From NCBI GenBank assembly GCA_000091205.1, contig AP006485.2: a stretch of 64,000 nt of DNA. One strand, written 5' to 3'. This document shows positions 10,106 to 58,295 of this stretch, piece after piece. This DNA comes from Cyanidioschyzon merolae (Eukaryota). The position numbers and the translations under genes are program-made. Each line of letters begins with the position of its first letter. Position 1 is the first letter of the stretch. Under the pieces are notes generated by a model, which made no database searches, was not told the DNA's origin, and was given only the letters and a program-made list of their open reading frames with translations.

Positions 10106-10302
10106 ACGATCCTATGCCTGAGATGCCTTACGCCAAGCGGGGAGCATCCTTTTAGTTGCAGTGTCGCGCTTTGTCGAAGGCGAGGAGCATTGGACGGCGT
10201 ACTTTTCAGGTTCGGTGGTACGCGAGCATTCCGCTGCATTGCATCTTCTACATTCGTGTTCGAATAAAATGGGACGGACCCTGAACCTGGGCGTAAACGC
10301 TG

Positions 10303-11613
10303 ACGTTTGGATCTCTTCGCACTGCCATCAATAATAGTCTTTGTGGGGTTTTTCTTGCGACTGCTTCTGCTCCCTCTTCCATACCCGACTTTGAACAAGA
10401 TGCTCAATGCTTTCCTGGGAGCTAACTTGTCAACAGGTGAAGGGTGTTTATGGCAGTGTGCAAATCCTGATTTTGCAGCTACAACCTGTTGTCGACGCAG
10501 TCAATACGTAAGTAAAAATTGCGATCGACGTAGCTGTTCCATTGTTGAGCTTGTTTGTACAAAGGCGCTGTGCGACCTTTCCATCAGTCATATCGTGTTA
10601 TGGTCAGGTGTGTCCCTCTATATCCACCTCATTTCCTCCGTGCGCCGCGCTGGGGCGTGGAAACGCTTGCTTCACGCCCCCGTACATGTCCATGACTGCT
10701 ACTGAAGGGTACGCTCCATGCACGCCTCCTTTTTTTTGCAGCGTCAACTGTACCCCACGATCACGGGGCTTGTGCGTGGCAATCCCCTCGGCAAGTACAC
10801 TATTCGATGCATACGAGAGTGCACGCAGTTCCGTTCGATAGCGGATTTGCGAAACGCAATGTTATTGACGATGGAACAATTACCAGAAACAAGATCCAAG
10901 CTGGAAAACGGGTCAAGAAATTTCGGTCTGTCTACGCTCCCTTCGTGCGAAACGGTGACGCACACCCTACTGGAATCGATCGCTCGGATGACTCCAGTTC
11001 TAGTACCGAATCCTTTCCCAAGCAAACAGAAGAGGCGGGAGCCCCGCAAGCAGCGCACCACATCATACGGTACCCTGCTGCTCTGGAATGCCGTCTCGCC
11101 GATGAGCGCGAAGAGACAAGAATTTGTCTTTCGAATGCAATGGACCATTCCAAGCGACAAGTGACGTGAGCAATGGTCATGAGTTTGTGAACGAGTCGTC
11201 CATGGACGACGTCAAGGTTCTGGTATCGCTGGATAATCTAGGGACACAAATCGCTTCGCCCCTAGGGTGCCGTGAGAGAGCAACACTGAAGCGTTGAAGA
11301 GTGCACGATTAACGCGTGCTTCACGTACGGAACTTTAAAGCGTGGGAGCTTGAACCAGTGACTCGGATCATTATATCGAATATTCTACGAATCTTTATTC
11401 GATTGCGTCGTGAATCCCCCCGATCCCTGTAACGTAACAATTTCCAGCGGTACAGCGTCAAAGGAGGCATTCCGCGAAAAAATGGCGACCGATCGACAGC
11501 AAACTACTCATGAATCTACACGCTCCTACCTGCTGCATTTCGCATGTCGAGACTGCGGAACTGCAAGTTCGGATAAATGGAAAAACAGGAACATAGAGAG
11601 CAGTAAAGCACTG
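10303..11613 (+). repeat. Dispersed repeat family A, copy A1 (longest copy, about 1.3 kb), unclassified
   Basis: Near-identical to 38001..39242 (inverted) and to 24964..25646 (direct). Paired spurious ORFs differ by only 2 of 120 residues (10807..11169 versus 38377..38739). Boundaries were set where flanks diverge (acgtttggatc... on the left, ...gcagtaaagcactg on the right). I recognised no protein family, TIR, or TG/CA termini. Confidence 0.8.
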
Positions 11614-16488: not shown

Positions 16489-18675
16489 CTACGATGGCGT
16501 TCTGTCGCGAGTGGCGGTGTTCGCGCTGGTAGCAGCAGGCGGCACTAGCGGCACCCGATGCGCTTTCGACTTGTCTGCTGAACGCTCCTGCAGCTCATTC
16601 GTCGATAGGAGAGGTACTGGCGCCGGCAAACACGCACTGGATGTATCATTCGCTGCTCCGAGAACATCCACATAACGCTGACGTATGCTACGAGGTCTTG
16701 ACACCTGATTCCGAGTCGTCATCGACATTGTCGTCGTCCCTGGACACGATGCAGCAACTGGCGGCAATGCTCCAGGTAGCGTACGGGTACTTGACTCGGA
16801 GGCTACTGCACCCGACACTTGTTCCTTCGTTGCTGCTGCTGATGTTTCATTGCATCCAGCGGACTTGTGCGCCAGTTCCGCGTCGCTGGGCGGCGGCGCC
16901 AGCACAGCACCCCCTCCAGCGGCATCGACATCATCGGCAGCACATACCCAGCGACCTAGTTTGTCATCATAGTAGAATTTGTTCTCCAGACCCAGATTGG
17001 CCTGCTTACGGGCAAACAGGCCCCCGAGTATGCGCAGGGGTAGCAGACGCGACAAACCCTTCGCTTGTGGTGCCTCTGCTGATGCTGATGCGGCGGGTGG
17101 CTTCGTATCCGTAGCTGCTGGACAAGCAGCACGCTGTGGCACTTCATGGACTGCGACGCGTTCCTGGTGAGGATGCATTGCTGACGCAGGCAGCACCCTT
17201 GACTCGGTATCGGATCGTGACGATGCAGCAGCGGTATCCGTAATGTCTGGTGACGTAGAGGTAGCGCGCGCTGCAGGTGCATTTGCAAGCACTTGTGCGC
17301 GCTGCGAGGTACCAGAGTGTGTCGTGCTTGACCGATTTTCACTGAACGAGGCATTTTCGTTGCCGCCGTAACCAGCGTTCGACGAATGCTCCGCTGCTGG
17401 CGGTCTAGGAGCAGACAACGCTGGCGACGATGCCCATGACTGCGAGCAGGTCTCAGCGTCGGCTTCGACCGGTACCCGCTGCGTATCGCGTGCACTACTC
17501 GAGAACTGCATCTCTGCATCAGGCTCGCCGCAGTTGCTGTTGCTAGCACCGGCGGAATGATAAGACCCCGGATAGGGGCAGGGCTTCCAACGTTCTTGCT
17601 GTTGTTCTTGCTGCTGATCATCGTGCAACCCTGCCGATACGATGCTCAGCTGTTGGAAATCAGCACGTACAGCACGCTGCGGAGAAGCAACAACCTCGTC
17701 GACGCTGCTCGTGAGCCTCGCAGAGGCCGGTGTTGCATCCACGACAAGACGCTGCGTCGTTGCCTCTGCCGCCCTAGGCGAGCAGCGCAGATCCCCGTCA
17801 CCTGTGGCAATCGATCCGCGATGCCCCAGAGACAAGTCGCCATTCCATGTGTGGACTGCATCCAGCGCAGTTGGAGAGAGCTGCAGCGTGGATGCAGGTC
17901 CATGACTCGCAACGCCGCAGGCTGACGACGACGGCGACGACGACGACGACACTCTAACGCTTTGCTCCCTACAAGGTGAAAAGCTTGCAGCTGTCGCCTC
18001 TGCGGTGCTCTTCGCTCGACGCCACGATTGCATCCCAGGGGTTTGCGTCGCGGCTGCCTCGGGTGCAATGCAGTGCTTCCCTGGTATCGGGGTGCGCTCT
18101 TCAGCACTTTCGTTTCCAGCGATCACCGGTATCTGGTAGCGTTGCGCGAGCGCACAACGACCAACATCCTGCAACGCCTCCGCAAGCGACACATGCACCC
18201 AAGCAGTGAAGCGCGTCGAGCGTTCTCGATGCACTGCATCAGCACCAGAGGGGGCTTCTGGATCGAAGCGCTTCGACCAGAGCATCCGGTAAACCTCCCA
18301 GAAAATCAACCGGTACACCGGACAAGGCGCTGGCATCGATATGCGCGCAGCACCCGAGGCACAGGCCGCCAGTGAAGTTCCAGTTGCCTTTTGGTACAAG
18401 TCGCTGGTGCTGGCCTCGTTCAAGTGCTGGTGCAGTGTCGTTGACGTTGACGTTAAGGTTAATGATGAAAGTCTCGTTGCTGGTACCCCCGGTTCGATAC
18501 CCTTCAGAAGCAGGTCACAGAAAGCTGGTGACCAGGGCGACTCTGCGGCGATCATTCGACAGAGCATCTCACGATCTATATCCCAGTCGTGATCAGCAGC
18601 AGTCAGTGTTTCTGCGACGATAGAAAATGCCCTCGACAGTGCCGCTTGATGCCCAGACTCTACAACAGATCCCGA

Positions 18676-18717
<42 letters not shown>

Positions 18718-21700
18718 ACGCCAGGGCGAAAGGATCCAGAGGCAGTCCAAGAGCGCTTGCCAGGGCCATGCACCCCCGGATGGTGCAACCAGGCGCCTTG
18801 TTGCCGACCGAATGAGGTCTTCGTCGGCGATCATCACTGCCAGTAACAGGGCAAGCAAGGAATCGCGTGCGTAACCCGAAAGGAGCAGTTGTCGAATGGT
18901 CTGTACGCGCCAGTGCTGGGGCGCAGGTTCCTCTTCGTCGTCGTCGTCGTCGTCGTCGTCGTTGACGTCGTCGTCGGGAATGCTATGAAGGAGATGCCCG
19001 CTTGTCGCTGTCGAGCGTTCATCCGGTGGCCAGAGTCCGGCTTGCGCTTCGCTGACAAGTAGCGCCAGTGTCCAGTCATTGGCCTGTTGCGCAAGACGGA
19101 TCGCTGTGCGGTACTGACCGAACAGAAGCGCTCGTTCAATCTGTTTGACATGCGACTGGGACGCATCAACGCCCTCATCAGCACCAAGAACAACGACAGA
19201 TGCGGCAGCAGCGTCTACGCGATGCTCCTGCAACATATGGCATAGCGCTGGCGATAGCGGCAACATCGAATGCTTTCGCGATGCGCGATTCGCTCGACTT
19301 GATATCAGTGAGCGCTCACCCGATCCAGATGTAAAAGAAGCGACAGATTGACTATGCGACATTTCCGACACGTGCACGAGGTTGGGGAGCACCTGACAGA
19401 GGAGTCGGCAAAGCAACCGACTTGCCGAATCGTCGTTCTCGTGTCGTTCCCAGGTCGCTTCCAGGCGATCACCGAAACGCTCCAGCACTTGACTCAGCTC
19501 CAGAGGCTCATCCGTTTCCGGCAACCAGTGCACGAGTGCCGTCACGTCCACATCGATACCGTCGAGTTCGGACACCAGTGACCAAGTATGATAGACATGA
19601 ACATCCGTATTGAGCTGTTGCTCAGCTGGATCTGCGTGGTCGCTGCAGGAGCCCCGATCGCTATCGTTCGTCCATGGAGCTGTCCCTGGTATCGAGATCG
19701 GTATCGGTGTCGCTGAAAAGGCATCGTTGGCGCTGGGTAAGCTACAGAGTACGCGTGGCGCCGACAATGCGAAATAGCCCAAGGAGCTGAAGGCCGCGGT
19801 TGGGCACAGCGGTTTCCCAACTGGACTCCAGTTCGCCGCTTGAGAAGCCATCATGGCATTCGTTGCGAATGGCGATACCCCCGAGAACACGCTCGCACCA
19901 GCATCATTTGCAGCAGAAGCTGGTGGCGATGTTGACGTTCGCTGCAGAGACGATATCGCGGTCACCAACTTGTCGTCATTGTCGTCGTCGTGAGTGTGAA
20001 CGTGGTGCAGAGTCCGGGTTGCCTCCCGAGCGTCCCAGCGAGCACCATCGTTCACAGCAGAGTGTGCAGCAGCGTTCCCTGGAGATACTGAAGCTGGCGA
20101 CGCCTTCAACGATGCTACCGCGCTCGCCTGCGACCTGTGCTGCTCCCAGGAAGCTTGTGTCGACCGGCCAGCAAGTGCATCCTCCGTGTTCGCGTCGTCG
20201 ATGAGCCGCTCACGATCATCAGCACTATGAGCATCGGCACCTGGACGCATCACAGGCGCTGCTGCGAACTCGGAATGATGCTTGAGCGGGGGCCCTGCCC
20301 AGACACCCGTCTCGAATGCCGTATCTAGGCGCAGGCCTTGTGTGGAGGTGTCGGGTTGCTCAGCGAAGGCAACCATGGATGTTGTGAATGCTTCCTCACA
20401 AGTCTGCGCATCTGTGTTAGCAGCGGTGTCGCTTGGGGCAAGCGCTTGAAGCATTTGCTGTGGCTGCGCAGCGTCCGGCGCTGAAAAGAAAGCCGCGCCC
20501 TCCGTGATAGTGCCCCAGAGGGCCTGCCTGGTCCCCGGCGTTGCCGTTGCCGCAACATTCGTGGACGCCCAGGGAGCCTCGTGACCCCAGGGATGCTCGG
20601 CAGTCGACTCGCCGTCGTCGTCCGCAGTGCCGTCAACGTCGCTGTCGGCATTGGAGCGTTCACGGCGTTGTACCTGCTGCCTATGGTCCACGTGCACGGG
20701 GTCATCGGTCACCAACTCGGGTGAATACGTCTCCGCGAGGCGCAAACGATGCATTGCTTCAGCGCTGGCGTCATGTTCCGGAGTAGCGAGAGGCAGCTCG
20801 CGTCCATAGCCGGGACTATGTACGCTTGTCGAAGGAGAAGCTCGTGTCTTGTGCTGGGACGGCGTCCAGGAGCGACTCGAATCCTCACGCTGCGATGTCG
20901 GTTGCGGTGGCGTTTCTGCTTGCGGGCAAGTCGCGTGCATTTTCATTGCTGCAGCGCCTCCATCTGAACTCCATGAAAGCGGCAGCTGTGTTGCAGCATT
21001 AGAAGACGTATACAACGGATCATCGGTACTGCGTGGTGCATCAGTGCACGTTTCGGGTGATCTTGGAGAGCGACTCGCTCCGGAATGCTCGTCTGGTGAT
21101 GTGCTGGCGAATGACTGCTTTGCGACTGCTTCATCTGCTCCGGATCGACGATCCGGGGCCTTCGCCTGTGGCAAATATGAGACTTCGAACTGTAATTGGT
21201 GATGCTGAGACACAACGTCAGGGGTCGGGTCTGCAGGCTCGTTATCCGGGAGCGCACCTGAAAAGTCGATCGCACTCTGGTACAGTCGAGGTTGCGACAA
21301 GTTTGCGGGCGCTGTAGTTGCACGCGTTTCAGTATCACCACCAGCCGCAGACGTCCGCAGTGCGATAAACGTGTCCGCCACAGAAACGTTCGCATCCGTC
21401 AGCGACATTCGCGGTGCAACTTCCGTTTCCTGGACTGTCGGCAGCGGTGTCGCTATCGTCCAGGCGCGCAATTCTCCGTCTTTGGAATCGAAAGGATACC
21501 GTTGTTCTGGATCATCAGCATGTCTTTGGTGCGGAGAAGCGCCTCTCGAGCGCACGGGTTCCAGCGACGACAAAACCGGCAGGTGATCGCCTTGCTCACG
21601 CGAGTGGCCTACATGTGGAAGCTCGGAGCGTCGAGCCACAGTCGGATACCCGTGAAGTATCGTCTCAGCTGCCTCCGTTGACTGGTGCTCCCAGGGCGCC

Positions 21701-23448
21701 ATCTCTTCGTGATCAAACTCGTTTGCTCTGTATGCATCCGACGCCATTGTTTGCCGAGCCTCAGTCGCATCTTCCGCTAGCCAAGTGTCGTCGGCATTCT
21801 CCGAGTGCTGCGCAAGCTCTATCGCATCCCAACTGTCTATCGTTTGCATGGTAGCTTGCGCAACAGCAGCAGGATGCGCTCGATGGTGCGATGCTTGGAC
21901 CTGATCCCAGCCCCGATCCGCGTCATGAGGATGCAGCGTCACAGTAAGGGTGCTCTGCTGCTCTCGCGGATGCGGCAAGGAGTCTGAAGCGTCCAGCGGT
22001 GCTCGGTTACTCGCAACGGATTCGGCATCCAGTTCGTTGCGTGACAAAGTCCCGGAATATTCGTGCCCCCCTTGCCGAGGACTCGCTCGCGACTCACGAT
22101 CACGCATCGAATCCATACAGGGGCTCGTTTGTGCCGCTGACTGCACCTGTATAGTACTGCGATCACTTTGCACGCGAGGCAAATCCGGCGAATTCCAAGC
22201 ATCCTTATGTACAAGCGGCATGCTGTACGTACCCGTGCTTTTCTCTGCTGAGCTTCGAGATTCTTGTTCCGCTAGGGCTCGTTGCGGTGGAGACTTCATC
22301 GTCATCGAGGCTTGTGCGCATGCGGCATCGCATTCGTCTCCAATGGACAAGCCTGAATGATGCAAGGGTCCGCACGCGGTCTCGTGGGATGCCATGTGCC
22401 TCAACTGCGGTGATGAGGCACGCTTTTCGGGTCCCGTTAGGTAGCTTGATGAACGTGAGACATTCTGGATCTCGGATCGCGTGCGGCCTGGTTCAGCCTG
22501 GATCGACTCGCTTGCTTGTATTGTGTGAACCGGATTTTCAAGACTATCCGGAGCTCTCGGATACCTCGTCGGGTCTTGCAAGAGATCTCCGTCTCGAGGC
22601 GGATTCAAAACTCGTGTAGCAGGTGGATCCACCGGCCCGCCACTTGCTGCATCGTCCTCTCTGCGCTGCACGTTAGAGTCCTCGGGAGAACGCTCACCTC
22701 TTGTTCCCGATTCGCATTGCAGACGCTCCATGACCGTATGAATCCTTTCAACTACATGAGAGGATGGAGTTAGCGGTCTATCTGTATGCTGCTGCGCTCT
22801 CGCGAGTTGTCCAGCGGCCAGTGCGTTGCGCCCCATAGTTGTATTGTCTTCCGTCGCCGAAGTGGAAAGCGCTTCTACGTGAAAACCCTGCTCTATCCTT
22901 GTTGAAAGATTCTGCGACTCTTCACCAGACCATGATGGACTCATATACGGAGTAGAAGCTGATGCGGTACGGCTGTTAGCTTTGGAACGGAGCCTCCGTT
23001 CGTGCTCCTCTATGAGCCGCTGAGCCTCTGCACGCCTTTGGCGTATTCGCTCGAGAATGGCGGCTCCTCGAGCTGCCAGCGTCTCGCTCGACTCCACAGG
23101 CAAGCGCCCAACTTGGCTCTCTGTCAGCGTACTACTACTACTACTGGAAGCGAAACGCTCCAATGAGGCAGCTCGTCGAGCCGCTGCAATCTGCTCAGCA
23201 CGCCGCATAATAGCGACCGCGTGCGACTCGCGCTCTGTCCGCGCTTCTGGAGCTTCCCTGCCTGAGCTTCGGTGCCCCAGCTCCGAGTCAACGCCCATAG
23301 TTGCCGATGTCGCTACCGTCAGTACCGCTGATGCTCTTTCCTCAACAACAGGGCCACGATCAGTGGTTCTGTCCTGCGCAGGAGCAGGAGCACGCAGCCG
23401 CTGGGCCCCCAGACGAGAGCCTCGAGATTGCCGCGACGTCGTCGTCAT
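16489..23448 (-). CDS. SEC16: Sec16-like ER-exit-site scaffold protein (2319 aa, largely low-complexity)
   Basis: A single ORF with ATG at 23448. The central motif IERALLFGQYRTAIRLAQQANDWTLALLVS matches the Sec16 central conserved domain pattern (LL.G....A...A.....W..ALLl.S). The C-terminal ...ARKQANLGLENKFYYDDKLGRWV...APPPSD matches the Sec16 C-terminal motif (plant ...LGEKNKFYYDEKLKRWVEEG). It also has polyQ, polyD/E and S/A/P-rich tracts. Confidence 0.6.
18678..18716. repeat. (GCT)13 microsatellite, read as (CAG)13 on the coding strand, encoding part of a Q14 run in the Sec16-like protein
   Basis: An uninterrupted gct x13 run is visible at 18678-18716. The protein reads WRQQQQQQQQQQQQQQSG. 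Confidence 0.95.
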
Positions 23449-23647
23449 TCGTTTCTACAGTTGTGTTTCGAGCCCTCTCTGTTCACAACACCAAAATCAG
23501 TGGCCCTGGCACCGGAACACCGCGCAGTACCGAAGCGTTTCAGAATGTTATCGCCAAAGTCGTCGGTTCGCCTTGGCACGCGAATTCCCATGAACGCGCC
23601 GTCCAGCTTTTCAGCATAAACACACGTGACATGTTTGCGTCTCGATG

Positions 23648-24253
23648 GGGATACACGCTGAGTTTCGCACTCCGGTATACCTAAAATAAGATTGCCTTTT
23701 TGTAGTGGTTTGCTTTTCTTACAGGGTTACACGCTGAGTTTCGCACTCCGGTATACCTGCAATAAGATTGCCTTTTTGTAGTGGTTTGCTTTCCTTACAG
23801 GGATACACGCTGAGTTTCGCACTCCGGTATACCTGCAATAAGATTGCCTTTTTGTAGTGGTTTGCTTTCCTTACAGGGATACACGCTGAGTTTCGCACTC
23901 CGGTATACCTGCAATAAGATTGCCTTTTTGTAGTGGTTTGCTTTCCTTACAGGGATACACGCTGAGTTTCGCACTCCGGTATACCTACAATAAGATTGCC
24001 TTTTTGTAGTGGTTTGCTTTCCTTACAGGGATACACGCTGAGTTTCGCACTCCGGTATACCTGGAATAAGATTGCCTTTTTGTAGTGGTTTGCTTTCCTT
24101 ACAGGGATACACGCTGAGTTTCGCACTCCGGTATACCTGCCATAAGATTGCCTTTTTGTAATGGTTTGCTTTCCTTACAGGGATACACGCTGAGTTTCGC
24201 ACTCCGGTATACCTGGAATAAGATTGCCTTTTTGTACTGGTTTGCTTTCCTTA
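23648..24253. repeat. Tandem array, 8 copies of a 76-bp unit
   Basis: The unit gggatacacgctgagtttcgcactccggtatacctgcaataagattgcctttttgtagtggtttgctttccttaca starts at 23648, 23724, 23800, 23876, 23952, 24028, 24104 and 24180. The array begins 200 bp upstream of the Sec16-like ATG (23448, minus strand). Confidence 0.95.
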
Positions 24254-24963
24254 AAGTTGTTCAATGAAAATAGCGTATGATATGCATTCGGGAAAGGTCG
24301 GGAAAAGCGTTTTGTGACGGCAATGGTCGTGTGCGGAAAACGGTCGTACATAGGCAAGTCAGTTCCTACTTCTCCAGAAGGTGCATGAACCGCACTTGTC
24401 GATGTGCATCCATGATAGAACTTGTCGAAATCTATCAACACGAATACTCTTTTGATCACTCCAATTTAGTCCAAACGTTCCCCCAGAAATACGAGGAAAG
24501 AAGCTCCAGGATGTCAAGTGTTCATGCGGTTTAAAAGGTCGGTGCTGAAGCGACTCGGATGGACGGAACAAGAGATCGCTTTCCTTCCACCGTTGAATAT
24601 ACACAATCGATTTCGTAGTGAAACGCGAATACTTTTGACAGAAAGCACAGGTAATCGTCTGATTTGATGATTCTTAATTCGACATGAATTTAGAGACCTG
24701 TACATGGCTGCTCAAAGCGGCGTTAACCATATTTCAAAGGCAAGCAACGAGTGATCATGGTGACAACATGACCCTAAATGGTAATGCAGCCGCGCGGTCC
24801 ATGAAGTATCACGAAAAAAAGCACAGGATGATTTACCATCTTATCATTCGTCGAAGCGCACTTTGAGTCTTGTCCTTGTCATGTGTTATGCTCCTGCTCT
24901 TACAGAGCGCCACTTTTTATCTTACAGAAATGGTCGAGGAGTCCTCCTCTAGGATTGGCGTTT

Positions 24964-25646
24964 TCTACGCTCCCTTCGTGCGAAACGGTGACGCACACCC
25001 TACTGGAATCGATCGCTCGGATGACTCCAGTTCTAGTACCGAATCCTTTCCCAAGCAAACAGAAGAGGCGGGAGCCCCGCAAGCAGCGCACCACATCATA
25101 CGGTACCCTGCTGCTCTGGAATGCCGTCTCGCCGATGAGCGCGAAGAGACAAGCATTTGTCTTTCGAATGCAATGGACCATTCGAAGCGACAAGTGACGT
25201 GAGCAATGGTCATGAGTTTGTGAACGAGTCGTCCATGGACGACGTCAAGGTTCTGGTATTGCTGGATAATCTAGGGACACAAATCGCTTCGCCCCTAGGG
25301 TGCCGTGAGAGAGCAACACTGAAGCGTTGAAGAGTGCACGATTAACGCGTGCTTCACGTACGGAGCTTTAAAGCGTGGGAGCTTGAACCAGTGACTCGGA
25401 TCATTATATCGAATATTCTACGAATCTTTATTCGATTGCGTCGTGAATCCCCCCGATCCCTGTAACGTAACAAATTCCAGCGGTACAGCGTCAAAGGAGG
25501 CATTCCGCGAAAAAATGGCGACCGATCGACAGCAAACTACTCATGAATCTACACGCTCCTGCCTGCTGCATTTCGCATGTCGAGACTGCGGAACTGCAAG
25601 TTCGGATAAATGGAAAAACAGGAACATAGAAAGCAGTAAAGCACTG
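24964..25646 (+). repeat. Dispersed repeat family A, copy A2 (5'-truncated, 683 bp)
   Basis: Colinear with A1 positions 10931..11613. Both boundaries are sharp. It lies about 150 bp from the stop codon of the trefoil-repeat gene. Confidence 0.8.
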
Positions 25647-36448: not shown

Positions 36449-37684
36449 TCAGCGCTTGGTCGCATGCGCGGGTGCACCATTCCCCGCGGAGTCGGTCTGG
36501 TCGAGCGCCAGAGCGGCTCGTAGCATCTCGTGCAATGCATCTCCACCGTCAAGGACACTCTCTGCGTCACTGCAGGTGAGGCCCGTGCGCAAGTCTTTCA
36601 CCAAGGTAAACGGACTCAGAATATAGGAACGAACGAGGCGATCTGCACTGCCAAAGCCGGCGCTACCGCCGTGATGTGTCATTGACGCCTGTCGTTGCCT
36701 TCTTTCCTGCAGATAGCGCTCACGGAGTTTCGATCGGAGCACATATAGCGCTCGAGCCTTGTTCTGGTGCTGCGAACGCTCGCTCCGACAGGTTACCACG
36801 ATGCCACTCGGTCGATGGGTGATTCGCACTGCAGAGTCCGTCTTATTCACGTGTTGGCCACCGGCGCCCGAGGAGCGCATCGTCTCGATGAGCAAATCGT
36901 CGGGATGAATGTTGAGCGCTTGTAACGCTTCTGATGCGACTTCTTCTTCATCCAGTAGCGGTATGATCGACACACTTGCAAAGCTCGTGTGACGCCTCTG
37001 GGACGCGTCAAAAGGCGAATGACGAACCAGGCGGTGAATACCGGCCTCGCCACGGAGCCAAGCGGTAGCCCAGGCGAGTCCATCGGTGCCGCTGCGTACA
37101 AAGAGGGCAGCATAGCGAAGTCCGGCGACTTCACCCGGGCTCGAGTCCGTGAGCTTCACTTCTTGGAAACGCAGGGATCGACTCGCCGCCGCAGACTCTG
37201 CCCATCTCTGGTACATGCGAACGAGCATACTACACCAGTCCATGGCCTCAGTACCACCTGCACCTGCCCGGACCTCAACCAGGCAAGAGCGGTGGAGGTC
37301 GGAGGGTTCATCGGCGCTTTCGCTCCGCGTACTCGCCCCATGAAGAAGCGCCATTGCTTCAATTCGCTGCGATCTAAGACGCAGTGCCTCTATCTCATCA
37401 CGAAAGAGAGCACCAGAGTCCGTTGTCGCACTCCCTTCCTCTGAGCAGAGCGTCAAACAGGCCTGAACTTCTGCAGAAAGCGTATCGACTTCGGAAACGA
37501 GGCGCTGTAGCTCAGCTCTTTCGCGAAGCAGCAAAGCACCCTGCTTCGCAGCGCGGGCTGTACTCCAGGTGCCTGGTTGGAGGCATGCGTTTTCGAGCTC
37601 GCGTAGGCGACGAACCAACTGCGGATAGCGCAGGCGCTGACGAACGAGCGCTAAGGAGCGCTGTATGGCTTCTAGGTCCCGCAC
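36449..37684 (-). CDS. prfB: Organellar bacterial-type peptide chain release factor 2 (SPF/GGQ); 5' end unresolved
   Basis: Motifs: GAGGTEAMDWCSMLVRMYQRWAE, the RF2 SPF tripeptide in GIHRLVRHSPFDASQRRHTSFASV, and the GGQ motif in RSSGAGGQHVNKTDSAVRITHRPSGIVV. The track start is GTG at 37684, and the first in-frame ATG is codon 107. Confidence 0.75.
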   Translation of the reverse strand: MRDLEAIQRSLALVRQRLRYPQLVRRLRELENACLQPGTWSTARAAKQGALLLRERAELQRLVSEVDTLSAEVQACLTLCSEEGSATTDSGALFRDEIEALRLRSQRIEAMALLHGASTRSESADEPSDLHRSCLVEVRAGAGGTEAMDWCSMLVRMYQRWAESAAASRSLRFQEVKLTDSSPGEVAGLRYAALFVRSGTDGLAWATAWLRGEAGIHRLVRHSPFDASQRRHTSFASVSIIPLLDEEEVASEALQALNIHPDDLLIETMRSSGAGGQHVNKTDSAVRITHRPSGIVVTCRSERSQHQNKARALYVLRSKLRERYLQERRQRQASMTHHGGSAGFGSADRLVRSYILSPFTLVKDLRTGLTCSDAESVLDGGDALHEMLRAALALDQTDSAGNGAPAHATKR

Positions 37685-38000
37685 CTCGACTGCTGAAGCG
37701 CAACGTGCGCGTCAAGCGCTGTATCACGAAAAAGAATCACAGCTTGATGCTTCAAAAAGAGGCGCCAACCGTCACCACGAAACGTAACCTGTTGTTTTTC
37801 CAACGCGGCATCCAGCGCGTGCGGTACAGTTCGACGCTGCCGAACGCTGTACGCGGAGCGTCAACGTGGACGTTCATGGAACTTGCGGAGAAAGCATTGG
37901 GAAACTCCAACTTTATCAGATTAGAATTGAGGCCTGAGCTCGTCTTTCTGTTCTTGTGTTGTAATTTTTTTCTTTACTTGTTCAGATGTACAGCGATGAG

Positions 38001-39242
38001 ATGCGAAATGCAGCAGGTAGGAGCGTGTAGATTCATGAGTAGTTTTCTGTCGATCGGTCGCCATTTTTTCGCGGAATGCCTCCTTTGACGCTGTACCGCT
38101 GGAATTTGTTACGTTACAGGGATCGAGGGGATTCACGACGCAATCGAATAAAGATTCGTAGAATATTCGATATAATGATCCGAGTCACTGGTTCAAGCTC
38201 CCACGCTTTAAAGTTCCGTACGTGAAGCACGCGTTAATCGTGCACTCTTCAACGCTTCAGTGTTGCTCTCTCACGGCACCCTAGGGGCGAAGCGATTCGT
38301 GTCGCTAGATTATCGAGCAATACCAGAACCCTGACGTCGTCCATGGACGACTCGTTCACAAACTCATGACCATTGCTCACGTCACTTGTCGCTTCGAATG
38401 GTCCATTGCATTCGAAAGACAAATGCTTGTCTCTTCGCGCTCATCGGCGAGACGGCATTCCAGAGCAGCAGGGTACCGTATGATGTGGTGCGCTGCTTGC
38501 GGGGCTCCCGCCTCTTCTGTTTGCTTGGGAAAGGATTCGGTACTAGAACTGGAGTCATCCGAGCGATCGATTCCAGTAGGGTGTGCGTCACCGTTTCGCA
38601 CGAAGGGAGCGTAGACAGACCGAAATTTCTTGACCCGTTTTCCAGCTTGGATCTTGTTTCTGGTAATTGTTCCATCGTCAATAACATTGCGTTTCGCAAA
38701 TCCGCTATCGAACGGAACTGCGTTCACTCTCGTATGCATCGAATAGTGTACTTGCCGAGGGGATTGCCACGCACAAGCCCCGTGATCGTGGGGTACAGTT
38801 GACGCTGCAAAAAAAAGGAGGCGTGCATGGAGCGTACCCTTCAGTAGCAGTCATGGACATGTACGGGGGCGTGAAGCAAGCGTTTCCACGCCCCAGCGCG
38901 GCGCACGGAGGAAATGAGGTGGATATAGAGGGACACACCTGACCATAACACGATATGACTGATGGAAAGGTCGCACAGCGCCTTTGTACAAACAAGCTCA
39001 ACAATGGAACAGCTACGTCGATCGCAATTTTTACTTACGTATTGACTGCGTCGACAACAGGTTGAAGCTGCAAAATCAGGATTTGCACACTGCCATAAAC
39101 ACCCTTCACCTGTTGACAAGTTAGCTCCCAGGAAAGCATTGAGCATCTTGTTCAAAGTCGGTATGGAAGAGGAAGCAGAAGCAGTCGCAAGAGAAACCCC
39201 ACCAAGACTATTATTGATGACAGTGCGAAGAGATCCAAACGT
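38001..39242 (-). repeat. Dispersed repeat family A, copy A3 (inverted relative to A1/A2)
   Basis: Its reverse complement is colinear with A1 10303..11545. Divergence points are sharp at both ends. It lies about 320 bp upstream of the RF2 ORF. Confidence 0.8.
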
Positions 39243-40587
39243 TATTCTTTGTGCCGTATTAGATGACTCGTTCCATTATATTCTGACGTGGGGGAACGCA
39301 GAGAGATTCGCATGAAGCTGCATCATGGTGAGCGCTGGCGAAAACACGGGACCAAGCATGACGCTATCCGCAGAGCGCCCCCGCTGCGCTGAAATACTAA
39401 CGCTTTGCTGTGTTCGTGCCGCGCTTGGATCTCCGGGGCGCCTTTGCAGTATAACGGCAGCAGAAACGCGTACGTCATGCACTGGGGACGCGCTCAGGTT
39501 GCTGGCGTCTGTTCAAAAGCTGGTTCTTAATCAACGTTCTTTGGTGTCAGCGTCTAACTGAAGCTAAACGCTGCGCTGGTGCAACTTGAGCGCTGCCAGT
39601 ATTTTTCTGGAAATCGTAAAAGCCATCACTCTCATTCAAATAAGCTAAAGAACGCTGTCCAACCAGAGCGAACGTCTCGTGGCGCTAGCGTACATCTGGG
39701 TTCGAGGTCAGAGCTCCGAACTACTGCTTGAACGAACTGGAAGTTTCTGTCGTAGGCGCCTGATGACGGCTCTCATTCGATTGCAACCGGGTGCCTAGGC
39801 GGTGACCTGGATTCAGTGTTTTGGTCCCTGAAAACGCCAGGGTCGCTCCAAAGGTAAGCAAAGATAGAGATCATTCACGTGCAATACATCGCCTCAATAG
39901 CGGATCCGATCCAGTGTTCCGCTCTCCAAGTCGCAAACGATAGAGGTGCAGTGACCCATCAGACTCCCTGCTGCAGAATGAACACACATACGCACATACA
40001 CAGACAAACAGCGCTGGACACGAGACTCATTCCATGTCGGAATCGATCGGAATGTGCTGTTTCCATTATTGGCGTCGGCGTTCTATGGTCAACCTCATTC
40101 AAAGACTCGTCTCTCTATGACGTGTCGTCATACAGCTCTACCACGGGCCGTTGCGGGTATCGAAGTTTTGACTTTGCATCGGCGACGAGGTGGTTTCAGG
40201 AAACAGGTCTCATTCGGACCGTCTCCAGCGAACGGCAGGTTTGACGCTTCCGCTTTACATCAAAAGAAATCAGACAGAGGCTAGCAGGTACGCCAAAGCA
40301 CGCACCTCAAGGCATACGCTGAGCGTGCTTATGAGGAACCACACTCGATGAACGGGTCAAAGACTAGTGCGCTCGGATGTACGCGTGTCCAGCCATGACG
40401 AATTTTCCGCCAGCAGATGCGTCCATCGACATGCTTCCGCCCAGCCGAGCAGGTCTCGTCGAGAAGCCGCCGTTCTGAGCACTACGCCTTGGATATGGCG
40501 AGCATCTGCCAGAGACCACGCTCATCAGCTGCCGAGAAACCATGGACATCATAAACAGAGGCTCGGTGCTGCGGTGAAACGAGAACG

Positions 40588-43507: not shown

Positions 43508-44674
43508 TTGAGAGTGTGGGCGTTGTCTGATGCAATGCAGACCGGGGGTTTCCCCAGCCCTAGTGTGCAACGCGTTCCAAAAGACGTGTTCTGCTTGATG
43601 GATACTGAGCGTTTTGATCAGCGGCCGACTTGTTGCATCGTACGCGAGTCCCGATGCCAGAGCGGAGGCAGCCTTTTCCGCCAGCCTGTGTCAATGGAGA
43701 TGTACATTCGCGGGCTCGCGTCTGCTGACCTTGATTCCAGTTTAGTGCGCTTTCGGCATGAGTCTGTGAGCAATTCATCACCGGACGAGATCAAGTGTTT
43801 CCCCTGCCTATCCAGCGCTGCGAGTGATTGCGTGCGCATGTTGCCTCGCGATAGAACAATTGGCAACTTGAAGAACGTCTGCTTCGAGCTTGCGACATGG
43901 AAGGGAAACGCAAGAATCGGGGCCTGTACATATGAATGGGTTTTCATTTTGATTACTGTACGAAGCCTTGCACGAGGGCATCGCTCATCTTCATCATGAT
44001 AGCAATCACGTAACGTTTCCCAGTGACACAGCGTCTAAGGAGCCACTCGGAAAAATCGGTCTAGCATCGTAGAACTAGGCGTGAATCCGTAAATCCTAAC
44101 TGCCGCACTTGGATTGTCAAGGCTGTCTGTGTATAAAAATAAGGTCCGAACATCAACGAAAAGCAGGTGTAGAACGAGCAGTCCCGTTTTCTCGTTTTAC
44201 CGGACCCGCGCGCATGGCGGATGTGCTTCTGCAGCGTGTTTGCGTTCGGTGCCGTTGGCGCGCGTTGCGAGGCTTGCGTTCTTATTTTATGAAAGCTGGT
44301 GGTTCTCAGGTTATTGTGGATACGTTTGTGGTGGCTTGTCTCGGTCTTGCGGGAGCCATTATTGGTCTGGAGTACGCTTTGGACGGTGACGAAGCCGCCT
44401 ACAGCGAACTCACCAACGGCAAGGACGAGGTTGCCGGCGATGCCGTTCGGGCACACGTACGTGCAACGTGGCGCAGCGCTGCACTTTCGCGGGTAGCGCA
44501 AGTGCCTGGCGGGACCTGAAACTGGTTTTTGACGAGCACGTCGCACCGGAGCTACCCAAGATGTTCCGTTTGATCGGACAGCAGTGGCTGACCCCGAAAA
44601 CTGCCTGGTTGTGGTCCGTGGTAAGCAGCTGGTGGGCAATCGCCTGAAAGGATGCGTGGTTCGTGCAGCGAGGC

Positions 44675-44678
44675 AAAA
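44675..44678 (-). terminator. Pol III T4 terminator run just downstream of the tRNA-Met
   Basis: The minus strand reads ...CTGCCGCA gc TTTT gcc immediately after the discriminator base. Confidence 0.5.
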
Positions 44679-44680
44679 GC

Positions 44681-44803
44681 TGCGGCAGGTGAGACTCGAA
44701 CTCACGACCTTAGGATAGCTTTCTTGGGCTCGTGTTATGAGACCTACGCGCTGTGGCACTGAAACTGAACTGGACAAAGTTTAACCAACTGCGCTACTGC
44801 CGC
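44681..44803 (-). tRNA. trnM-CAU: Elongator tRNA-Met (anticodon CAT) gene interrupted by two short introns: about 30 nt in the D-loop and 19 nt in the anticodon loop
   Basis: Minus strand reads GCGGCAG TA GCGC AGTTGGTTA [AACTTTGTCCAGTTCAGTTTCAGTGCCACA] GCGC G TAGGT CTCATAA [CACGAGCCCAAGAAAGCTA] TCCTA AGGTC GTGAG TTCGAGT CTCAC CTGCCGC A. The acceptor stem is 7/7 paired and the T-arm is perfect. The spliced product is 73 nt and near-identical in its arms to plant-type elongator tRNA-Met. The introns map to about 44752-44781 and 44716-44734. Confidence 0.8.
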
Positions 44804-53307: not shown

Positions 53308-54953
53308 TCACGATGACGTGGAAAATTCAAAGTCTTCGAGATCCGCATCAGCTGCGACGTTCTCAACCGCAGCACCAGGAGAGAGCGGCAAAGCAAATGC
53401 TTGCCTTTCTCTCCGAGTTTTATGCTTCCAGACATGGAACACGACTTCATCGTCAACATCAGCGACCGATAGCGGGGCAGCGTCGGTAGCAGGATTCTCA
53501 TCCATCACAACTTCTTCTGCGCTCGGTGAAGGCTCGCAGACATCAAGATCAAAAGCGTTATCCCAGTTTGAAACGATCTGGGCTCCAAGCTGCTGCGACG
53601 AAGGCAGTCCAACGTGCTTCGGCCACGTATAGTATGGGATTCTGCCAGTTGCCCAATCTTGCACCAGGACTCGAGCTGCTGCTTCGAGATCAAGAACTCC
53701 CGCTTTGCGTAACAACCCACGCCTTTTTGCAAGCAGTGCCAAGAACTGCGTGGCAAAAGATTCCTCTCGAGTAGCTTCGTTTGCAGCAACCATATCGCAC
53801 ATCGAAAATGCAGGCATTTCGTAGAGTAGAGAGAGCGCTCCATCCGCGTTATACTGACATCGTTCGAGTACCAGGCGAGCCGCAGCCACCGGATCGCTGA
53901 GCTCCTCAACAGCGAGAAATCCAGCGAGCGCCATTCGACTTTCGTCTCGAGAGCCAGATGTCGCATTGGCAACTGGCTCGGGTGAGCCCGCGGCTTTCGT
54001 CTGCTCCACCTCCACCACGGGTGCTGGATCGATTTCCTGCACATCGTCCAGCACAACACCAGGCGAGTCCAGCAACCGGATGTTGCTATCAAGCCGAACC
54101 TCCTGCAGTGTTTTGGTGATACCCGGACGGGCGCCAGTCGCCACAGCACCTTGTTCACGGCAGAGGGCGTTCAGTAGACTTGACTTGCCCACATTCGGTT
54201 TGCCGACGATGCCTACAGTGATGGTGCTGCTGGATGATTGCTTGTCCGCACGCCGTTTCGCATAGAGCTTGAGCAGCTGCACCAGCTGCGAGAGCTGTTT
54301 TGGTTGTACTGCGCTACCTGGCTGCCGCGGGCCCCGGTGCTGACCAGTCTGATCGAGGCCTTCATGCATCGCCAATGTCGGGTACTCGGCCCGAAGTCGA
54401 CACAGCCAGGCCTGGAGAGCTTCACGTGGAACCAGGTCCGCTTTGCTGAGCACCAATATCAGCCGTTTCCCGCCAGCAGCTCGCGCACCCTCGTGACGTA
54501 CCAGCAGCTCGAGCGCTGAAGATCGGCTCTCCAGCGGGTTCCGGGCGTCGAGCACCTCGACAACGACATCCGAAAACTCCACGACACGACGAAGCGCTGC
54601 AGCAAAAGACCGCCTCGAGCGCGCAACTTCGCGGAACACCGGAGTCTTCTCGAGTGCATTCGCACCGGATAACGCAGGAGCGGACACGGGCGACTCGCCC
54701 AAGGAGCCCGCTTCTGCCGTCACCGTCGATCGCAGGGCCAGTCGTCGCGCTGCCTGCTCCAGCAACTGCTCCTTTTAGGGTTGAGGTTCGGTACACCGAG
54801 CTCGCGCTGGGCCTTGCGCTGCCCTTTAATCATACCTTCTTGTCGTTGCTTGCGAACCAGGCGCCGCATTCGTCGATTGTGCTCCGCCACTTTCCGCTGC
54901 ACTTTGTACTTGTGCTTTAGCGTTTCTCGTTTGCTATGGCGATGTGGTGCCAT
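53308..54953 (-). CDS. GNL3/nucleostemin/Nug1-type circularly permuted nucleolar GTPase; the reading frame changes once near 54773-54776
   Basis: The N-terminal ORF 54720..54953 (ATG 54953) reads MAPHRHSKRETLKHKYKVQRKVAEHNRRMRRLVRKQRQ...ELGVPNLNPK, a GN3L/Grn1-type basic N-domain. The main ORF 53308..54765 is in another frame and carries motifs in permuted order: LVLSKADL (G4), GIVGKPNVGKSSLLNAL (G1), LLDSPGVV (G3). Confidence 0.75.
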
Positions 54954-55685: not shown

Positions 55686-58295
55686 ATGCCGTGCGACGCA
55701 CAAGCGGGCCAGCGGCTTGTTCGGGCCCTGTCGCGAGCAGAGACTTGGGATACTCGGCGGGCTCTGCTGCAGACGCTGGTCTCTGAGCTTCGAGATACCG
55801 AGAGTGTCACTTTTTTCCTACAGGAAACGAAACTTCGCTCGGTGCTCGGCCAGCTAATCGAAAGGGCCTTGCGGGCAGCGCAGCCACACATCGTCGACCT
55901 ACTGGACCTGACGATGCAGGTGATTAAGTGCCTTGTCAAGTCGATGCAGAGAGAGGATGTGGTCGATTTTCTGGAGGAAAGCAAGTCTCTCGTTCACGGC
56001 CTTAAAGCGCTTCGAAAATTAGGACGCAGCAAAGGCGTTTCTGCGGAGAATTTCGTCGCTGACGCATCCGAAAAAGCCTGGGGCGAGCGACTTGCGACCT
56101 TGCGTGAGCAGGCTGCGAATATAATCGCTGAAATGGAACAGGTAGCTGGCCGAGAAAAACCCTCGACGCCATCAGCGCCCGAAGAAACACCAGAGGCAGG
56201 TGAGAGTCGTTCGCTACCGGTAGCCGTGCATGCACCAGTCCAAACAACCGATTCCAGTCACCCTGGTACCACTGAAGCATCTATTCACGCGAATGCAGAT
56301 GCGAGTAACGCTTCTGCAAAGGCCGCTGCATCCCAGGATGATACATCAGAGCCAGCACAGTCGACTGTTGGGGAACACGAAACGCCTCTGGCGGTCGGGG
56401 CGCTTTCGAGTTTCGCCTCGGCAGACGCGTCGATGAAAACGGGACGTAAGCGACCGCGTCCACGACCAGAACGTGACACAGCTTTGCCGGCTTTTACAAG
56501 CTCCTCTGATGAAGCTTCCCAAAGTGTTTCTGCTCGAGCTACGGAATCTGTAGGTACGCAGCCGACCGTCGACGTTAGTGACGCAGATGCGTCGCTCTTG
56601 CCACAACAAGCTTCAGCACACGTAACAGCAGCTCGAGCGGAGCGAATGCATCACTCCGATGCCCTCGAGACAACGTCACCACCTGGAGCAACAATACCCG
56701 AGCGATGTGCGAACGAAGCAACGCATCATGTACCTACACCTACCGTGCGCGATGCAGGTCACACCGGCGATATCGCCGAAAAGGAAGCATCATCAGCCGA
56801 ATCAACATCATTCGTAGCACCAGAAGAGGCAGCAGCAACTTGTGCGATAACCAATCGATCTGCGAAGCGAGCGAAAATGGAGGCTCCGCGTCCAGCCCTT
56901 CGGATCCGAACATCCGCTGACGCATCATCGACGAAACTTGCTCGAAAACCTGCATCAAAGCGTGTTCATTTCGCCCCAGAGCCTGTGCTTGTGCAAGTCT
57001 ATGCCTTTGAATATATTCCCGACGAGCGCACGCATGCCCCTGTGAACCTCGCTGGCATCGTGTCTGATACCGATGAACCGGCATTGGACGGGGAATCAGG
57101 TGCGACGAGTGCGACCAAAGAGCGATCGACGCACGCTCCAGGCAATGGATTCTCAGAGGTCGTAGAGGAGGGTCGTCTCATGCAAAAGAAACGCCAACAT
57201 CGCCAGAAAGTTCTTGCTGAAATGCGGGAGGATGCGACATTCTACCCGCCGCCACATGTCGAGAGTTCCTGTCCGCTGGGAGCAGCTGGCGAATGCGAGC
57301 AGCTGTCCGACGTTCTCGCCAACGGCTCTACTGTTGGATGCGTTCCACGCAACGCGGACAGTCATCAAAGCGGTACCATTGGAGTCGTTTCGCCTGGGTC
57401 GCTATCGTCCGGTGTGCCCGACGAACCGATGCCGCCGTCGCCACCTCGTGAGCGCTCGCTCGACAGGCAGACACCACCACCGAGCCTGCGGGTGATTCCA
57501 GAGTATCGCGTGGAGCATCCAGCTCCAACCTCGTTTTCCTACACACCGGCAGGGGCGCTTGCACCGGCGGGAACACCAGAAGCGACCGTATCTGCACCAG
57601 CGGCTGCCACGACTGCAAACCTATTGACATCGTTCCACGGGACACGAGGCCCAAGTACGCTGGATCCAACGCGATTGCAAACGAAGCCCTCGGATCGGAT
57701 ACAGCCGCCTCACCTGGAGACCAGCCTCTGGTCAGCGATTCCACCGAATACGAGCGGCACGCCTGTTTCGGCTACATCGCAAGGCCAGCATACCGACCTA
57801 TTGCAGCGCAATCAGATAGATGAGGCTATCTTGCAGCATTTCCTGCTCGTGAAAGACGAAGAGACCCGTTTACAATTACTTTGTGATGAAAATGTCCTGC
57901 GAGTAGTCCAAAAGTACGCGGAAGAGAAACAGCGAGAGGCGGCTTTGCAGCACGCACATGGCTACCGCCATGCGAACGCAGCACCCGGTAACCAGTGGAG
58001 CGGTTATCCAGCACCGGCACCGGCACCAGCACCAGCACCACTAGCGGCAGCGTTTCCTGCACTGACTCCTCAACAGGCTCCGTTCCCGGTGTTGAATGGC
58101 ATGCCATCGGACCCGATCGGCTATCACGGATTCGTTTCGCCAGCGCTGCGAAGAGAGACCGCCAGCTCCGCTGCGTACGCTCAAGCGACTGGGGTGAACA
58201 ACGACTCCGCACCTATTTGCAAGTACCACTTGCGCGGTTATTGCAGACGCGGTAAGTGGTGTCGCTTCCGGCATATATCGCCGGACAAGCCATAG
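55686..58295 (+). CDS. PNUTS/PPP1R10-like protein: TFIIS-N-like N-terminus, RVxF PP1-docking motif, C-terminal CCCH zinc finger
   Basis: The track start at 55440 is TTG; the first ATG is at 55686. KRVHFAPEPVLVQVYAFEYIPDER (RVHF at 56961-56972) parallels PNUTS [21 protein letters not shown]. The C-terminal CKYHLRGYCRRGKWCRFRH (58218-58274) has C-x7-C-x5-C-x3-H spacing. Confidence 0.55.
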   Translation: MPCDAQAGQRLVRALSRAETWDTRRALLQTLVSELRDTESVTFFLQETKLRSVLGQLIERALRAAQPHIVDLLDLTMQVIKCLVKSMQREDVVDFLEESKSLVHGLKALRKLGRSKGVSAENFVADASEKAWGERLATLREQAANIIAEMEQVAGREKPSTPSAPEETPEAGESRSLPVAVHAPVQTTDSSHPGTTEASIHANADASNASAKAAASQDDTSEPAQSTVGEHETPLAVGALSSFASADASMKTGRKRPRPRPERDTALPAFTSSSDEASQSVSARATESVGTQPTVDVSDADASLLPQQASAHVTAARAERMHHSDALETTSPPGATIPERCANEATHHVPTPTVRDAGHTGDIAEKEASSAESTSFVAPEEAAATCAITNRSAKRAKMEAPRPALRIRTSADASSTKLARKPASKRVHFAPEPVLVQVYAFEYIPDERTHAPVNLAGIVSDTDEPALDGESGATSATKERSTHAPGNGFSEVVEEGRLMQKKRQHRQKVLAEMREDATFYPPPHVESSCPLGAAGECEQLSDVLANGSTVGCVPRNADSHQSGTIGVVSPGSLSSGVPDEPMPPSPPRERSLDRQTPPPSLRVIPEYRVEHPAPTSFSYTPAGALAPAGTPEATVSAPAAATTANLLTSFHGTRGPSTLDPTRLQTKPSDRIQPPHLETSLWSAIPPNTSGTPVSATSQGQHTDLLQRNQIDEAILQHFLLVKDEETRLQLLCDENVLRVVQKYAEEKQREAALQHAHGYRHANAAPGNQWSGYPAPAPAPAPAPLAAAFPALTPQQAPFPVLNGMPSDPIGYHGFVSPALRRETASSAAYAQATGVNNDSAPICKYHLRGYCRRGKWCRFRHISPDKP

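Follow-up and report, generated by a model that had tools for sequence, protein, structure and literature searches.

An AUG-less reading frame for mitochondrial-type RF2 in Cyanidioschyzon merolae and its relatives, with probable initiation at a GUG or UUG codon

The window analyzed here is a stretch of 64,000 nucleotides from chromosome 3 of Cyanidioschyzon merolae 10D. On its minus strand, ORF listing and Pfam delimit a coding region of 411 codons (36449..37684) that runs from GTG to TGA and encodes a mitochondrial-type RF2 (mtRF2a). Pfam places a PCRF domain at residues 25-238 (E = 9e-31) and an RF-1 domain at residues 257-366 (E = 3.4e-35). The stop-codon recognition motif SPF occupies residues 223-225 (37010..37018, minus strand) and the peptidyl-tRNA hydrolysis motif GGQ occupies residues 275-277 (36854..36862, minus strand); with both domains and both motifs, the ORF is a complete RF2. 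Solved bacterial RF2 chains match it with E ~3e-63 over residues 13-392, and in the alignment to these structures its residue 3 corresponds to residue 2 of T. thermophilus RF2 and its residue 13 to residue 20 of E. coli RF2. The best non-algal matches are alphaproteobacterial (Stellaceae and others), at 44% identity. The ORF shares a 90% cluster with BAM79082.1, which GenBank names 'mitochondrial peptide chain release factor RF-2', in agreement with an earlier note on this DNA that had called the gene an organellar RF2 from its letters. More generally, mtRF2a has been retained in red algae, among other lineages (PMC3472500). Elsewhere in the window, the ORF 55686-58295 is identical to CMC168C (BAM79086.1).

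The GTG that opens the RF2 frame (37682..37684, minus strand) had been named as the point at which RF2 homology begins, and conservation does start there. This codon forms the 5' boundary of conservation, is aligned with TTG in the relatives L005, L008, and L009 described below, and is proposed here as a non-AUG start codon. The RF2 frame is closed by an in-frame TGA (37712..37714, minus strand) that precedes the GTG by 9 codons, and a second in-frame TGA lies at 37724-37726 (minus strand), both at the positions reported earlier. Downstream of the GTG, codons 2-110 (37355..37681, minus strand) correspond to RF2 domain 1, are under purifying selection, and contain no ATG. The earlier note was therefore right that the frame lacks an early ATG, but its count was slightly low: 110 codons rather than 106 are without one, and the first in-frame ATG (37352..37354, minus strand; the Met of IEAMALLHG) is codon 111 and not codon 107.

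Upstream of the GTG, an ATG-free stretch of 124 nt (37685..37808, minus strand) is presumed to be the 5' leader of RF2. As previously described, the ATG at 37877-37875 opens a 41-codon ORF (37752..37877, minus strand) that ends with TGA at 37754-37752, and the RF2 frame lies +1 relative to it. The characterization of this ORF as presequence-like did not hold, however, as it has no RF2 homology, is not conserved in any relative, and has its equivalent region broken by an indel between two Cyanidiococcus strains; we judge it to be non-coding, or at most an incidental uORF. The upstream region is bounded, 314 nt from the GTG, by a copy of a dispersed repeat (37998..39255) that is 99% identical to 10385-11548 and 24964-25581, and whose near end is at 37998 rather than at 38001 as first given. 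Many public contigs (metagenome and Logan) break 120-480 nt upstream of the RF2 GTG, at the edge of this repeat.

Database models of this gene start further downstream. The GenBank model for C. merolae (BAM79082.1/XP_005535368.1) has 301 aa and starts at the internal ATG, and two C. yangmingshanensis assemblies carry 306-aa models (KAK4532551.1/KAF6001877.1) that are labelled 'hypothetical protein' and also start from the internal ATG, annotated at 5001-5921 in L009. On comparison with the complete frame, these 301- and 306-aa models are probably truncated by about 110 residues and lack the whole of RF2 domain 1, and a gene-model correction would apply to each of these accessions.

Syntenic RF2 orthologs were obtained from assembly GCA_041825655.1 (L005-L007, 77% identity), from a Cyanidiococcus Logan assembly (L008), and from Cyanidiococcus yangmingshanensis (L009). 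Three lineages were thereby compared, namely C. merolae, L005 (GCA_041825655.1), and Cyanidiococcus yangmingshanensis (L008, L009). The comparison with related algae that had been recommended earlier revealed the same AUG-less RF2 layout in L005 and in the Cyanidiococcus sequences L008 and L009. In all three lineages, an in-frame stop occurs 27-78 nt upstream of the GTG/TTG and the first in-frame ATG encodes the Met of a common EAMALLH motif. Because it is found in three diverged lineages, the AUG-less layout is more than chance. The RF2 loci of the relatives lack the dispersed repeat and have a large, divergently oriented gene as their upstream neighbor. The repeat is therefore not the cause of the ATG loss, and damage linked to the adjacent repeat, one of the explanations raised in the earlier note, is excluded since relatives without that repeat beside the gene are also without the ATG. 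Likewise, the presence of TTG at the same codon position in sister lineages indicates that the AUG-less start has been inherited and maintained and does not reflect damage. The codon-level argument for an NTG start draws on three independent lineages only; an exhaustive representative search with the N-terminal 150 aa gave weak matches only and identified no RF2 ortholog from Cyanidium or Galdieria.

To assess sequence reliability, 19 C. merolae-type loci were taken from ENA, JGI, and Logan assemblies, where they represent about 16 distinct contigs, and were aligned over an interval that opens 330 nt before the GTG and closes 260 nt beyond the stop. This alignment contains 0 indels and ten SNP columns in all. 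Between -330 and the RF2 stop there are 4 SNPs, of which three are upstream (-279, -244, and -69) and one is coding. Assembly indels, which had been suspected as a cause of the missing ATG, are thus excluded by 19 loci without an indel. A metagenome scan for the RF2 locus returned C. merolae-type contigs only, and the short Logan and JGI contigs L010-L012 do not include the RF2 5' end. Two of these, L010 and L012 (Logan SRR29604930 and SRR29605748), both stop exactly 239 nt after the RF2 stop codon, and this shared end could reflect the 3' end of a transcript or a break in the assembly.

The ATG-less part of the gene evolves as a protein would. Codons 2-110, which encode RF2 domain 1, are open and without frame-breaking indels in all lineages, with pN of 0.13-0.20 vs pS of 0.62-0.89 (pN/pS ~0.2). 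The dN/dS of this segment is 0.11 in the L005 vs L008 comparison and again in that of L008 vs L009, with synonymous sites saturated between the compared lineages, and is close to the value for the rest of the gene (0.07-0.08). These substitution patterns show the 110 ATG-less codons to be selected as protein, and purifying selection on them in turn implies that they are translated.

The point at which translation can begin is narrowed by the alignments. In both MAFFT and blastn comparisons, inter-lineage similarity starts at a single codon, GTG in C. merolae and TTG in L005, L008, and L009, and the blastn alignment of L005 vs L008 begins exactly at the TTG (1701 vs 1601). Codons before the NTG are unrelated between lineages. 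Codons 2-4 keep the amino acids R, D/E, and L while their third positions vary (CGG/CGA, GAC/GAG/GAA, and CTA/CTG), a pattern that indicates translation. In C. merolae, the 9 in-frame codons between the TGA and the GTG include no near-cognate codon. Ten codons upstream of the TTG, L008 has TGG whereas L009 has TGA, which shows the segment upstream of the TTG to be dispensable as protein. Taken together, the lack of a near-cognate codon before the C. merolae GTG and the TGG/TGA difference place the N-terminus at or just after the NTG.

The context of the NTG was also considered. The -3 position is G in all four sequences and the +4 position is C; a G at +4 favors near-cognate starts. First ATGs of the long ORFs in the window show a weak -3 preference only, and the Kozak consensus is too weak to use. 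The ATG-free stretch upstream of the NTG measures 124 nt in both C. merolae and L005 and 148-161 nt in Cyanidiococcus (P ~0.05-0.11 each at the local ATG frequency), which is compatible with a short leader without an upstream AUG. Between the NTG and the internal ATG, out-of-frame ATGs number 2 in C. merolae (+98 and +286) and 2-5 in the relatives, and these would catch ribosomes scanning beyond the NTG. In the RNA downstream of the NTG, no conserved hairpin and no covariation were found (fold z-scores +0.85, -1.19, and -0.51).

From these observations, we consider it most likely, with reasonable though not high confidence, that RF2 begins at the GTG/TTG and depends on obligate non-AUG initiation. 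Non-AUG initiation had stood on the list of explanations in the earlier note, and it is the option that the evidence favors. Initiation at GUG/UUG or at a neighboring near-cognate codon, the two taken together, is quite probable, and we infer that GUG/UUG is the codon actually used.

Several other readings were weighed against initiation at the NTG. The notion that the feature is an assembly error, or the gene a pseudogene, draws some support from a possible strain-specific frameshift in another gene of the window (described below), but at the RF2 locus independent assemblies are identical, the AUG-less layout is common to several lineages, and purifying selection is accompanied by intact SPF and GGQ motifs; this reading is hardly credible and is already refuted as far as sequence data allow. 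It could also be argued that the database models are correct and that translation starts at the codon-111 ATG, with the preceding 110 codons an untranslated relic. This ATG has A at -3 and G at +4 and has been adopted in GenBank for C. merolae and two C. yangmingshanensis assemblies. Nevertheless, such a start is very unlikely, since the 110 codons are open, indel-free, and under purifying selection despite saturated synonymous sites, since they constitute RF2 domain 1 and align to solved structures from residue 2-3, and since two to five out-of-frame ATGs precede codon 111 in every lineage. A start only a few codons downstream of the NTG, either at the Ile codon of IQRSL (ATA 37666-37664 in C. 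merolae, ATT in its relatives) or at more than one codon of this kind, would use a position that is near-cognate in all four sequences. Even so, it is unlikely, as the preceding codons 2-4 (R, D/E, L) differ by third-position changes only and look translated.

Readings that place the start further upstream encounter other difficulties. An undetected 5' exon might supply an AUG and a mitochondrial presequence and join the gene body at a splice acceptor lying shortly before the conserved part, an arrangement that would suit the N-terminal extensions of other eukaryotic mtRF2a proteins and the AG that directly precedes the C. merolae GTG and the L005 TTG. An RNA-seq intron survey (bioRxiv 10.64898/2026.05.17.725761) moreover reports twelve formerly unannotated C. 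merolae introns. However, the same survey describes a near-invariant GUAAGU 5' site and ACUAACC branch site for cyanidialean introns, yet suitably placed motifs are absent upstream of RF2 in four genomes. The 1.5 kb upstream of RF2 contain no ACTAAC on the gene strand in C. merolae, L005, or L009, and the sole upstream GTAAGT in C. merolae is 1.37 kb away and is not followed by a branch site. In Cyanidiococcus, the TTG is preceded by TA instead of AG, and blastn and tblastn found no conserved block between the neighboring gene and the NTG. RNA-seq surveys give only 39-40 introns per cyanidialean genome, and the text of the intron survey cited above names no release factor. We regard such an exon as rather unlikely, and the short intron suggested in the earlier note is likewise unlikely, given the lack of suitable GTAAGT/ACTAAC signals and of a conserved upstream exon.

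Alternatively, ribosomes might start at an out-of-frame upstream AUG, for example that of the 41-codon ORF, and then enter the RF2 frame through a programmed frameshift or bypass, in the manner of prfB. ATG-initiated ORFs are present upstream in C. merolae and Cyanidiococcus, L008 and L009 each have one that overlaps the RF2 start, and C. merolae shares the +1 direction with prfB. These upstream ORFs nonetheless vary in frame, length, and sequence among lineages and between the two Cyanidiococcus strains, and L008 and L009 differ by a frame-breaking indel inside their upstream ORF. Two shifts would be needed in C. merolae, which bears out the earlier statement that a single prfB-like +1 shift cannot work, while in L008 one shift, of -1, would suffice. 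Where prfB has its canonical site (Leu-UGA-Asp, at about codon 25), the gene studied here reads on through CTG CGC (L18-R19) without interruption, and no significant or covarying RNA structure is present. Cytosolic termination uses eRF1, and RF2 autoregulation therefore cannot apply. Frameshifting from an upstream AUG is thus highly improbable. Two further candidates were rejected: readthrough from an in-frame ATG at 'MLSPQVP' would require four stop-codon readthroughs, and termination-reinitiation from the overlapping upstream ORF of Cyanidiococcus has no AUG in that frame in C. merolae or L005.

If the NTG is indeed the start, cytosolic ribosomes would initiate at GTG 37684 and decode it as Met, and the product would have 411 residues starting (M)RDLEAIQRSL. 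The N-terminus of this mtRF2a would then coincide with that of bacterial RF2, without an added presequence, and mitochondrial targeting would be supplied by a first helix whose basic character far exceeds that of its bacterial counterpart. In cyanidialean RF2, residues 1-32 have a net charge of +3 to +5, whereas 29 bacterial RF2s average -0.8 (range -3 to +1). The cyanidialean N-terminus is about 6 residues shorter than that of alphaproteobacterial RF2, and the open frame permits at most 9 extra codons before the C. merolae GTG, which leaves no presequence extension. In other eukaryotic mtRF2a proteins, extensions of 64 residues (P0145) and 161 residues (Riccia fluitans KAL2629893.1, homology from residue 162) precede the homology. 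The first helix of cyanidialean RF2 is a putative mitochondrial import signal. A matrix protein without an N-terminal extension would be unusual, and the gene raises the question of the route by which a mitochondrial translation factor of this kind enters the organelle. MAFFT pairs the cyanidialean 'NTG-Arg' with the bacterial 'Met-Arg' start, and the NTG may therefore, speculatively, descend from the ancestral start codon.

A broader proposal can be formulated from these elements, namely that RF2 is one of few cyanidialean nuclear genes without an AUG start, that it has used GUG/UUG obligately since before the C. merolae/Cyanidiococcus split, and that its product, having no presequence at all, is imported by means of the basic first helix. 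In its entirety, this proposal is tentative and somewhat doubtful. The wider cyanidialean split has been dated to ~320 My (preprint). No description of the start of cyanidialean RF2 was found in the literature searched. A ribosome profiling study of C. merolae from 2025 reports 161 revised start codons and six nuclear genes 'lacking a distinct start codon' (PMC11808204); AUG-less genes are consequently not unprecedented in this organism. Those six genes, which belong to the same species as the RF2 studied here, are reported to have footprints in methionine-free regions.

The cyanidialean RF2 gene can be compared with several characterized systems. It has in common with canonical eukaryotic mtRF2a (Duarte et al. 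2012, PMC3472500; for example Arabidopsis AT1G56350 and Riccia KAL2629893.1) the RF2 domains with SPF and GGQ; its own closest bacterial matches are alphaproteobacterial, and the mitochondria of its lineage are expected to read UGA as a stop. Canonical mtRF2a proteins, however, have an ATG start and extensions of 60-160 residues, while the cyanidialean RF2 has no extension. Bacterial prfB belongs to the same protein family and likewise combines an odd translational feature at its 5' end with nearby in-frame TGA codons. In contrast to prfB, cyanidialean RF2 lacks an AUG-initiated ORF0 for the first ~25 residues, as well as CUU-UGA-C and any conserved shift site, and the gene is read by cytosolic ribosomes, which do not use RF2.

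Non-AUG starts, obligate or specific to an isoform, are known from mammalian EIF4G2/DAP5 (GUG) and from the mitochondrial isoforms of yeast GRS1 (UUG) and ALA1 (ACG). Arabidopsis organellar proteins (Christensen et al., 2005) are a further example. Like these cases, RF2 has a near-cognate codon at the 5' edge of a conserved CDS, no upstream in-frame AUG, an organelle-bound product, and an expectation of low expression. Unlike them, its NTG appears to be the sole start, with no AUG-initiated full-length isoform; its codon varies by lineage (GUG vs UUG), adds no presequence, and is proposed from comparative sequence evidence. Known biology is not overturned by the RF2 gene, as non-AUG starts of organellar proteins have been documented in yeast, plants, and animals. 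Rather, RF2 offers a clean and conserved candidate for sole non-AUG initiation in C. merolae, for which ribosome profiling and genetic tools exist, and if the proposal is true, the gene would be a natural model of sole non-AUG initiation in a minimal eukaryote.

Other features of the window were recorded along with RF2. A gene for a GNL3/Nug1-like circularly permuted GTPase (53308-54952, minus strand) is split in 10D, with the junction near 54775-54795. The ATG at 54952 opens a typical basic N-terminal region (MAPHRHSKRETLKHKYKV...GVPNLNP), and beyond a TAA the GTPase body is read in the -1 frame. In a closely related metagenome strain (L027), the gene is a single intact ORF (…GVPNLYPYKKQLLEQ…), and 10D differs from this strain by a 1-nt deletion and three substitutions within ~15 nt. 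The split may reflect a frameshift or pseudogene particular to the strain, or else a local error of the reference, and unlike the RF2 case, it is not conserved.

The dispersed repeat that lies beside RF2 is ~1.2 kb long and is present in three copies with 99% identity, at 10290-11548 (+), 24964-25581 (+), and 37998-39255 (inverted). Two-copy direct repeats with 98-99% identity were noted at 13817-14116/58408-58707 and at 10931-11230/24964-25263, the latter pair belonging to the same 1.2-kb repeat family. A tandem array at 23496-24327, in which at least 8 copies of 300 nt recur in register every 76 nt (~11 units of 76 nt), is located directly upstream of a 2319-codon ORF (16489-23448, minus strand). 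Finally, positions 44681-44803 (minus strand) give a full-length Rfam tRNA match over 123 nt (48 bits), with no tRNA detected by ARAGORN, which fits an intron-containing or otherwise unconventional tRNA gene; such genes are known for C. merolae. The ATG-less 'ORF' at 44061-44780 is explained by this tRNA match.
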